A stretch of DNA of 40,473 nucleotides from Escherichia phage BUCT788. Within the stretch, counting starts at the first letter, position 1; each line of letters begins with the position of its first letter. Made by a program: the position numbers and the translations under genes. Shown here piece by piece: positions 4,748 through 5,348 of the stretch. The notes beneath the pieces are model-generated. The model saw nothing but the letters and a program-made list of their open reading frames with translations, did not search any database and was not told the origin of the DNA. The DNA lies in sequence record PV540240.1; one strand, written 5' to 3'.

Positions 4748-5348
4748 AAACTATCTCATTGTGCACATTAAATCTGGTGAACTCGGTGAAACCCTTCTAG
4801 GGCAATACCGAGCCAAGCCATAGGGAGGATATATGAGAGGCAAGAAGTTAATCCTTGCGACCACAGAGAGTGGTTGTATCATCCCTACGTCACACAAACT
4901 TAATGCTGATGGTTATTTCCGAAAGAGGACTAACGGTGTCCTAGAGATGTACCACAGGACAGTCTGGAAGGAACAGCACGGAGATATACCAGAAGGGTAT
5001 GAAGTAGACCACAAGTGTAGGAACAGGGCATGCTGTAATCCAGAGCATCTCCAGTTACTAGAAGGGTCTGAGCATACAGTCAAGACAAACAGAGAACGCT
5101 ACGCTGACCGTAAAGAGTCCGCGAAGGAATACTGGTTGGAGACTGGATGTACAGGAACACACTTAGGTGAGAAGTTTGGTGTTACGTTCTCTGCCGCGTG
5201 TAAGTGGATTAGAGAGTGGAAGGCGTAGAGACTATCCGAAAGGAGTAGGGCCGAGGGTGAGACTCCCTCGTTACCCGAAGCGCCAGACAGTCAACTCAAA
5301 GGCTGATGATATAGTCCGACACTCCTAGTAATAGGAGAATACAGAAAG
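4748..5348 (+). mobile_element. Group I intron (601 nt) in the DNA polymerase gene, carrying an HNH homing endonuclease ORF
   Basis: 5' exon ends in U (4747) and the intron ends in G (5348). Exon end GTGCAT can pair with intron GTGCAC (4761..4766) including a U-G pair at the splice site (P1); exon 2 start GATGAG can pair with intron CTCATT (4755..4760) (P10). A GATATAGTCC core-like element lies in the 3' part. Joining 4747 to 5349 gives WVH-DEIQV as in T7. Confidence 0.8.
4833..5228 (+). CDS. HNH homing endonuclease (intron-encoded), 131 aa
   Basis: HNH signature EVDHKCRNRACCNPEHLQLLEGSEH; GGGAGGA RBS; lies wholly inside the intervening sequence. Confidence 0.88.
   Translation: MRGKKLILATTESGCIIPTSHKLNADGYFRKRTNGVLEMYHRTVWKEQHGDIPEGYEVDHKCRNRACCNPEHLQLLEGSEHTVKTNRERYADRKESAKEYWLETGCTGTHLGEKFGVTFSAACKWIREWKA

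Follow-up and report, generated by a model that had tools for sequence, protein, structure and literature searches.

[quoted passage not shown]

The DNA polymerase gene of Escherichia phage BUCT788 (PV540240.1), analysed as one stretch of 40,473 nucleotides (the window), is very probably (about 0.93) interrupted in motif C, where a mobile group I intron of subgroup IA2 separates the His codon from the Asp codon. This intron is one that contains a homing HNH open reading frame (ORF) and was acquired from a 13a/T7-type donor. In extent the window is close to a complete genome of a K1F-like phage (Kayfunavirus), and over the first 25 kb it matches phiYIO1-1, K1F and their relatives at 94-96%. The intron family, its site, its fold class and its endonuclease are already known, having been described in 2004 and annotated in reference genomes; the present analysis adds exact coordinates (Table 1), a structure model backed by covariation, a likely reason why Rfam misses the feature, and evidence of recent transfer of a 13a-type intron into Kayfunavirus.

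Table 1. Coordinates, in the window, of the polymerase exons, the intron with its assigned helices and ORF, and the putative co-conversion tracts
Feature	Position	Strand	Remarks
Exon 1, family A DNA polymerase (gene 5 homologue)	2732..4747	+	ends at His codon CAT, HDE motif
Group I intron (IA2-type), 601 nt	4748..5348	+	phase 0, between His and Asp codons
Exon 2, DNA polymerase, DEIQVACRT...GPTWKECH and stop	5349..5504	+	starts with catalytic Asp-Glu
P1, exon GUGCAU with internal guide GUGCAC	4742-4747 with 4761-4766	+	U4747-G4761 wobble at 5' splice site
P10, guide AUCUCAUU with exon 2 GAUGAGAU	4753-4760 with 5349-5356	+	8 bp
5' core half	4773..4821	+	P3, P4, P5, P6 and P6a strands
P3	4773-4779 with 5281-5287	+	
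P4	4782-4787 with 4807-4812	+	
P5	4792-4795 with 4799-4802	+	
P6	4813-4814 with 5222-5223	+	
P6a	4818-4821 with 5216-5219	+	ORF in loop
Shine-Dalgarno-like GGGAGGA	4823..4829	+	P6a loop, upstream of intron ORF
HNH homing endonuclease gene (putative), 131 aa and stop	4833..5228	+	in P6a loop, between P6a strands
3' core half	5216..5348	+	P6a/P6 3' strands (5216-5223) through terminal G5348
P7	5228 and 5230-5234 with 5312-5317	+	A5229 bulged
P7.1; GUA linker; P7.2	5235-5244; 5245-5247; 5248-5276	+	
P8	5288-5305	+	
P9	5322-5337	+	GUAA loop
Terminal G	5348	+	
Putative 5' co-conversion tract, upper bound	4721..4747	+	Kayfunavirus-like at 4717 and 4720; donor-like at G4744
Putative 3' co-conversion tract, 16 nt	5349..5364	+	identical to 13a; from flank comparison

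Interruption of the polymerase gene

The table of ORFs shows the exon 1 frame running from the ATG at 2732 through ...GDFAYMAWVH and on into KLSHCAH before a TAA (4769-4771), in agreement with the original prediction that the polymerase frame stops at 4771. The product of exon 1 alone would be without the catalytic Asp-Glu and the C-terminal 51 residues. The C-terminus resumes in frame at 5349, also as predicted, with the codons GAT GAG ATT CAA GTA GCT, and its translation (DEIQVACRTQEIAEE...GPTWKECH, the anticipated DEIQVACRT...GPTWKECH) extends to a stop at 5502-5504. When the 601 nt of the insert are deleted, the spliced translation is a polymerase of 723 amino acids that is collinear with T7 gp5 (PDB 6n7w) over residues 10-723 (E 4.5e-270), contains a Pfam DNA_pol_A match (1.6e-35) and aligns with the T7 DNA polymerase with zero gap at the junction (...FAYMAWVH/DEIQV...). 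The claim that the insertion lies inside the HDE motif is borne out by the same alignment across ...AYMAWVH/DEIQV..., which places the insert in phase 0 between His653 and Asp654 (T7 numbering), in the HDE of motif C. The HDE residues of T7 correspond to H881, D882 and E883 of E. coli Pol I. The predicted junction of the spliced mRNA is GGGTGCAT joined to GATGAGATT, and the predicted junction peptide is AWVHDEIQVACR.

The limits of the insert were located with a spliced-junction query of 357 nt, which matched 1,143 phage records, 996 of them with one place covering at least 80% of the query and so counted as carrying the uninterrupted allele; the best intron-less match was 96.4% identical in one uninterrupted piece. 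Across the junction, intron-less Kayfunavirus alleles read GGGTCCAT followed directly by GATGAATTG, beginning GATGAA after the insertion site, and intron-less Kayfunavirus gene 5 of the LNA5/EcoDS1 type reads GGGTCCATGATGAATTG. The insert had been described as 601 nt long, beginning after a U and ending in G, and it occupies exactly 4748..5348, preceded by U4747 and with G5348 as its last base. Unlike bases flank both junctions (T/A at the 5' end, G/G-A at the 3' end), so that there is no room to shift the insert, not even by a single position.

It is very unlikely that the polymerase is truly split by an endonuclease cassette into two separately translated polypeptides, assembling or non-functional, with no RNA splicing, although examples of phage genes fractured in the presence of a free-standing endonuclease are on record (PMC2677866) and separate polymerase coding sequences, in the style of gp5, gp5.3 and gp5.4, are given in AM084414, NC_007636 (K1F) and Ro45lw. 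The nearest upstream stop in the exon 2 frame is at 5307-5309, and the sequence from that stop to 5349 contains no in-frame ATG, GTG or TTG, so that the catalytic Asp-Glu would be translatable only by way of RNA splicing. Moreover, the non-coding flanks of the ORF constitute a complete, covarying group I core with guide-exon pairings, which a simple cassette would not need, and gene 5 is essential in T7-like phages. Removal of the insert as an intein, or its bypass in translation by a frameshift or hop, deserves hardly any credence: conserved polymerase motifs are favoured by inteins also, but the polymerase frame stops 8 codons into the insert, which is not one ORF in the exon frame, and the insert has no intein motifs, its sole domain being HNH_3, in an ORF with a start of its own. 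All three alternatives to splicing (a true gene split, an intein, a frameshift) were rejected on sequence grounds, and interruption by an intron is the reading followed below.

Structure and covariation of the intron

The hand-assigned helices compose a full P1-P10 architecture that, together with strong covariation, a full-length Rfam match and an invariant terminal G, upholds the identification of the insert as a group I intron. The originally proposed P1 (GTGCAT/GTGCAC, with a U-G pair at the cleavage site) stands unchanged, and the proposed P10 (CTCATT/GATGAG) extends to 8 bp. What had been noted in the 3' part as resembling a group I core element is GATATAGTCC at 5309-5317, the 3' strand of P7. 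In the hand-assigned fold of the window intron P2 is absent, whereas the alignment places a P2 hairpin at the corresponding position in some relatives. The hallmark of subgroup IA2 is the presence of P7.1 and P7.2, linked by G-U-A, between P7 and the 3' strand of P3 (PMC3428280); here the two helices are joined by GUA and both covary.

Homologues were sought in IMG/VR with the 18-mer GATGATATAGTCCGACAC, which gave 120 loci, and, in the phage collection, by a distant BLAST with the 3' core as query; of the 63 records matched, 50 included at least 80% of the core. From these, 22 homologues with two locatable core halves, 99% down to approximately 70% identical, were aligned with the window after removal of the ORF. 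Over these 23 sequences the hand model had standard pairs in 94.8% of cells, compared to 36-49% in slid controls, changes on both sides in 45 of 66 pairs (10-19 in slid controls), and a covariation score of 0.415 (at most 0.105 in slid controls); none of 500 shuffles reached any of the observed measures of pairing or covariation. Double-sided changes are present in every helix across the 23 sequences. The proportion of cells paired was 98% for P3, 96% for P4, 91% for P5, 100% for P6 and 89% for P6a in the 5' core half, and 100% for P7, 99% for P7.1, 85-98% for P7.2, 97% for P8 and 100% for P9 in the 3' core half. The pseudoknotted P7 is among the helices that covary (GGUCA/UGAUC in phage Arash versus GACUA/UAGUC).

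At the 5' splice site, U-G occurs in 20 of 23 homologues and U-A in 2 of 23, and the outer pair of P1 is a compensatory A-U in ECBP2. The strongest case is P10, in which six of the eight pairs have changes on both sides across the homologues, and the guide tracks synonymous changes in exon 2: the exon and guide partners are GAGAUU/AUCUC in the window, GAAAUU/AUUUC in homologue L122 and GAAGUA/ACUUC in L086, while in L066 and L059 GAGGGA is found with UCCCUC or UCUCUC. The terminal G is invariant (23/23), as is the G-binding pair of P7, G5230-C5316, which is G-C in 23/23 and lies beside the bulged A5229. RNAalifold, run blind to the hand model, recovered P1, P3, P4, P5, P6, P6a, P7.1, P7.2, P8 and P9. 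The single-sequence minimum free energy fold of the ORF-less window intron (z = -2.5) contained P1, P4-P6a, P7.1, P7.2, P8 and P9 and missed P3.

At the gathering threshold, a search of the whole window with Rfam gave zero matches. In a permissive scan of 4650-5450 (801 nt), RF00028 matched at 38.3 bits (E 4e-8) over 4738-5338; the match is full-length (model 1-253), with about 400 nt placed as an insertion after P6. The score lies below the gathering score of the family, 50 bits. Related introns without an ORF pass the RF00028 threshold (85.4 bits for L079, 58.9 bits for phage Arash, L130), and the introns of K1F and 13a, which are annotated and contain an ORF, fall below it likewise. The low score most likely stems from the roughly 400 nt that the ORF adds to P6a and not from the lack of an intron feature. 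ORF-bearing copies of this intron escape Rfam at its default threshold.

The intron ORF

The anticipated HNH ORF of 131 amino acids with its own ribosome-binding site is present within the intron. Residues 40-82 match Pfam PF13392 (HNH_3) at 1.9e-16 and 59.8 bits, against a cut-off of 24.8, and GGAGG is kept at the Shine-Dalgarno position in most ORF-bearing homologues. The protein is 77% identical to the intron endonuclease of K1F. The dN/dS of the ORF is 0.09 in comparison with K1F and 0.12 in comparison with 13a, which indicates that the protein has been kept by purifying selection.

The 3' end of the ORF is embedded in the ribozyme: its last codons traverse the 3' strands of both P6 and P6a, and part of its UAG stop (5226-5228) enters the first pair of P7. 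Because of this overlap, ribosomes completing the ORF would unfold part of the core. Similar couplings of translation to folding exist in other phage introns. A second ORF of 53 amino acids (5167-5328), labelled 'unknown' in the K1F record DQ111067, lies partly over the 3' core (5216-5348) and gave no match in Pfam; it was dismissed as spurious.

Proposed splicing and homing

Splicing catalysis, endonuclease activity and the cleavage site are inferred from sequence, as follows. The ribozyme would fold in the pre-mRNA, where the guide GUGCAC would pair with the end of exon 1 as P1, with U-G at the splice site, and an external guanosine, docked at the G-C pair in P7, would attack after U4747. 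The guide AUCUCAUU would then hold exon 2 in P10 while G5348 enters the G site, and ligation of the exons would allow synthesis of the 723-aa polymerase. The independently translated 131-aa HNH protein is expected to cut or nick intron-less polymerase alleles near the insertion site in mixed infections, and repair from the intron-bearing copy would transfer the intron plus a few bases of the adjoining exons. The copy in the window would have been acquired by such homing from a 13a/T7-type donor.

Mosaic origin of the window copy

The intron and its exons have different affinities. In comparison with K1F, exon 1 of the window is 95.5% identical and exon 2 is 89.3% identical, and the intron only 79.9%; in comparison with phage 13a, a Teseptimavirus, identity is 60.4% for exon 1 and 65.0% for exon 2, and reaches 97.2% for the intron over 601 nt. 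The similarity to 13a continues into exon 2, where 5349-5364 is GATGAGATTCAAGTAG, as in 13a, and differs at six positions from GATGAATTGCAGATTG of intron-less Kayfunavirus, so that DELQIA of intron-less Kayfunavirus is replaced by DEIQVA in the window. Kayfunavirus-like sequence resumes at 5365. On the 5' side, position 4744 is G in the window and C or T in intron-less Kayfunavirus alleles.

Several of these donor-type bases take part in the guide pairings. Without co-conversion, the Kayfunavirus exon context would be GUCCAU and GAUGAAUUG. P1 depends on G4744, since a C-C mismatch would arise with the resident C, and the full 8 bp of P10 require 5354-5356. A mosaic with short donor-type tracts is the pattern expected of homing initiated by an endonuclease. 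It is favoured, at somewhat better than even odds, that the window and its near-twin PDP351P3 record a recent homing event across genera, in which the polymerase gene of a Kayfunavirus received a 13a/T7-type intron along with very short co-conversion tracts, no more than 27 nt long on the upstream side and 15-16 nt on the downstream side, that cover the guide-paired exon bases (G4744 and 5349-5356) and alter two residues near the catalytic Asp-Glu.

The distribution of the intron is patchy: about 50 of approximately 1,140 related phage records carry the core, and these are spread over Kayfunavirus, Teseptimavirus, and phages of Yersinia, Klebsiella, Salmonella, Aeromonas and Edwardsiella. This distribution and the mosaic both bear on the possibility, considered improbable, that the intron splices and is immobile, its HNH ORF being inactive or serving another role (for example, as a maturase) and its inheritance being vertical only. 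Homing endonucleases decay after fixation of their introns, according to a review (PMC3984707), and the HNH protein is without a solved relative recognizable by sequence, a search of the PDB having returned no match even at E = 1. However, the intron is far from fixed; the ORF is intact, with 131 amino acids as in K1F and the low dN/dS given above; and the 97% identity of the intron to that of a phage of another genus, together with the short donor-type exon tract, points to recent transfer.

Being of the 13a type and set in a K1F-type backbone beside a donor tract of 16 nt, the mobile intron of the window would constitute a clean natural example of homing between genera, and its mosaic illustrates the tie between co-conversion and the pairing needs of P1 and P10. 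If this were general, the needs of splicing, besides those of the endonuclease, would set the minimum exon tract that travels with an intron, and mobile introns would rewrite the neighbourhoods of polymerase active sites across phage genera.

Relationship to known introns and endonucleases

Membership of a known class, as the original prediction supposed, is evident from reference genomes, in which the homologous intron is represented by a two-piece coding sequence (K1F, CLB_P1 and 13a), and from the introns at the same site in phiI and W31 (PMC3428280). Group I introns in gene 5 of the T7-like phages phiI and W31 were reported by Bonocora and Shub (2004), as cited in PMC3428280, which places them directly behind the His of HDE (Pol I position 881), assigns them to subgroup IA2, describes the HNH endonuclease I-TslI, with its own ribosome-binding site, in P6a, and cites experimental demonstration of their self-splicing. 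Compared by description, these introns and that of the window are alike in host gene, insertion site, IA2 subgroup, P7.1 and P7.2 joined by GUA, and an HNH ORF with a ribosome-binding site in P6a; the hosts differ, being T3/T7-type phages for the former and a Kayfunavirus for the latter.

The introns of K1F (DQ111067) and CLB_P1 (KC109329), annotated with a joined DNA polymerase coding sequence and a homing endonuclease, agree with that of the window in genus, site and architecture and also encode a 131-aa HNH protein. They represent a variant of 598 nt, in which the P1 loop and P10 guide differ from those of the window and fit their own exon 2 (GAUGAGUUA), and in which compensatory changes relative to the window occur in P5, P7.2, P8 and P9. 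The 13a intron (EU734174) has the same length as that of the window, and its splice junctions and the first 16 nt of its exon 2 are identical; gp5 of 13a is annotated as a two-piece coding sequence with an 'endonuclease' inside, in a phage that, unlike the window, belongs to Teseptimavirus. The nearest record, Kayfunavirus PDP351P3, is 97.4% identical over the region and is unannotated there. In many public records of related phages the polymerase is entered as two genes or the region has no annotation at all, and the splice junctions and structure model would allow these genomes to be annotated correctly.

A free-standing relative of the intron endonuclease is encoded by gene 5.3 of phage T3, located 10 nt downstream of T3 gene 5. 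The T3 protein is 45% identical to residues 6-94 of the window ORF and differs from it in lying outside any intron, in its length of 101 amino acids and in being without the C-terminal part. Free-standing relatives were reportedly proposed by Bonocora and Shub in 2009 as ancestors of the intron endonuclease. The T7 gp5.3 protein was considered as such a relative also and proved on comparison to be unrelated. Combinations of a group I intron and an HNH endonuclease are likewise found in the family A polymerase genes of SPO1 (I-HmuI), Bastille (I-BasI) and Pf-WMP3 (I-PfoP3I). The Pf-WMP3 intron, like that of the window, belongs to subgroup IA2, is without P2 and carries the ORF in P6a, and the polymerase introns of all three phages are at position 674, compared to 881 here (PMC3428280).

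Variation and annotation of related introns

The polymerase and its intron are annotated inconsistently in the public records of related phages. The polymerase exons are joined in DQ111067 (K1F), KC109329 (CLB_P1) and EU734174 (13a); AM084414/NC_007636 (K1F) and the records of Ro45lw, Edwardsiella phage DT115P1 and Aeromonas phage PT2 contain two polymerase CDSs and an HNH gene, or a 'hypothetical protein'. Introns at this site also differ in structure: a P2 hairpin between P1 and P3 (columns 38-59 of the ORF-free alignment of the window intron with 22 homologues) is present in the relatives L114, L128, L129 and L088, with a loop that contains GUAA (GUAA in L114, GAGUAAUU in the others), whereas it is absent from the introns of the window, 13a and K1F.

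Two related introns that lack an ORF were found at other locations (see table). That of Salmonella phage Arash interrupts a family A polymerase gene at a different site from the window intron, and the record splits this gene into 'DNA polymerase nu' and 'DNA polymerase theta'; its P7 (GGUCA/UGAUC) covaries with respect to all other aligned homologues. The second, a compact intron of the same core from an IMG/VR contig, has exon flanks unlike those of the window intron.

Aeromonas phage vB_AhaP_PT2 contains a second group-I-like element in addition to the HDE-site intron, so that its polymerase gene probably has two introns. Most of this second element is covered by a 157-aa ORF (29-502), in a stretch that is without annotation in the record. 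Three IMG/VR contigs (L120, L108 and L107) each possess two GATATAGTC core elements (the 3' strand of P7) on the same strand, approximately 1,050 nt apart, which suggests a similar twin-intron arrangement.

The K1F-type intron copy of Citrobacter phage NS1 has an additional insertion after P4 and a core element mutated to GATATACTCC, and its exon 2 is replaced by unrelated sequence. Either this copy is degenerate or the arrangement is an artefact of assembly or permutation.

Additional ORFs of the BUCT788 genome

A 53-aa ORF that overlaps the 3' ribozyme core is probably not a gene; it had no match in a Pfam search, and its counterpart in K1F is annotated as 'unknown' (DQ111067). Elsewhere in the genome, tblastn with the intron endonuclease matched two free-standing HNH-like ORFs, so that BUCT788 possesses at least three genes of the HNH_3 type. 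The two are separated by a 148-aa ORF, and immediately downstream is a 595-aa ORF (27772-29559) that, from its position, may be the large terminase gene.

Intron relatives and additional ORFs, with coordinates in the respective records
Feature	Source	Coordinates	Strand	Remarks
Related intron without ORF	Salmonella phage Arash, OQ632216 (L130)	1349-1620		Rfam 58.9 bits
Compact ORF-less relative	IMGVR_UViG_3300048629_000073 (L079)	2864-3105		Rfam 85.4 bits
HDE-site intron	Aeromonas phage vB_AhaP_PT2, OM716005 (L127)	1002-1625		Rfam 39 bits; region 1-1650
Second group-I-like element	Aeromonas phage vB_AhaP_PT2 (L127)	338-560		27 bits, E 2e-4
K1F-type intron copy	Citrobacter phage NS1, MN715150 (L126)	859-1491		Close to record start
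GTG-start ORF, 53 aa	Window	5167-5328	+	Overlaps HNH gene end and 3' ribozyme core (5216-5348)
HNH-like ORF, 133 aa	Window	26610-27011	+	tblastn E 7e-8
HNH-like ORF, 128 aa	Window	27435-27821	+	tblastn E 0.05
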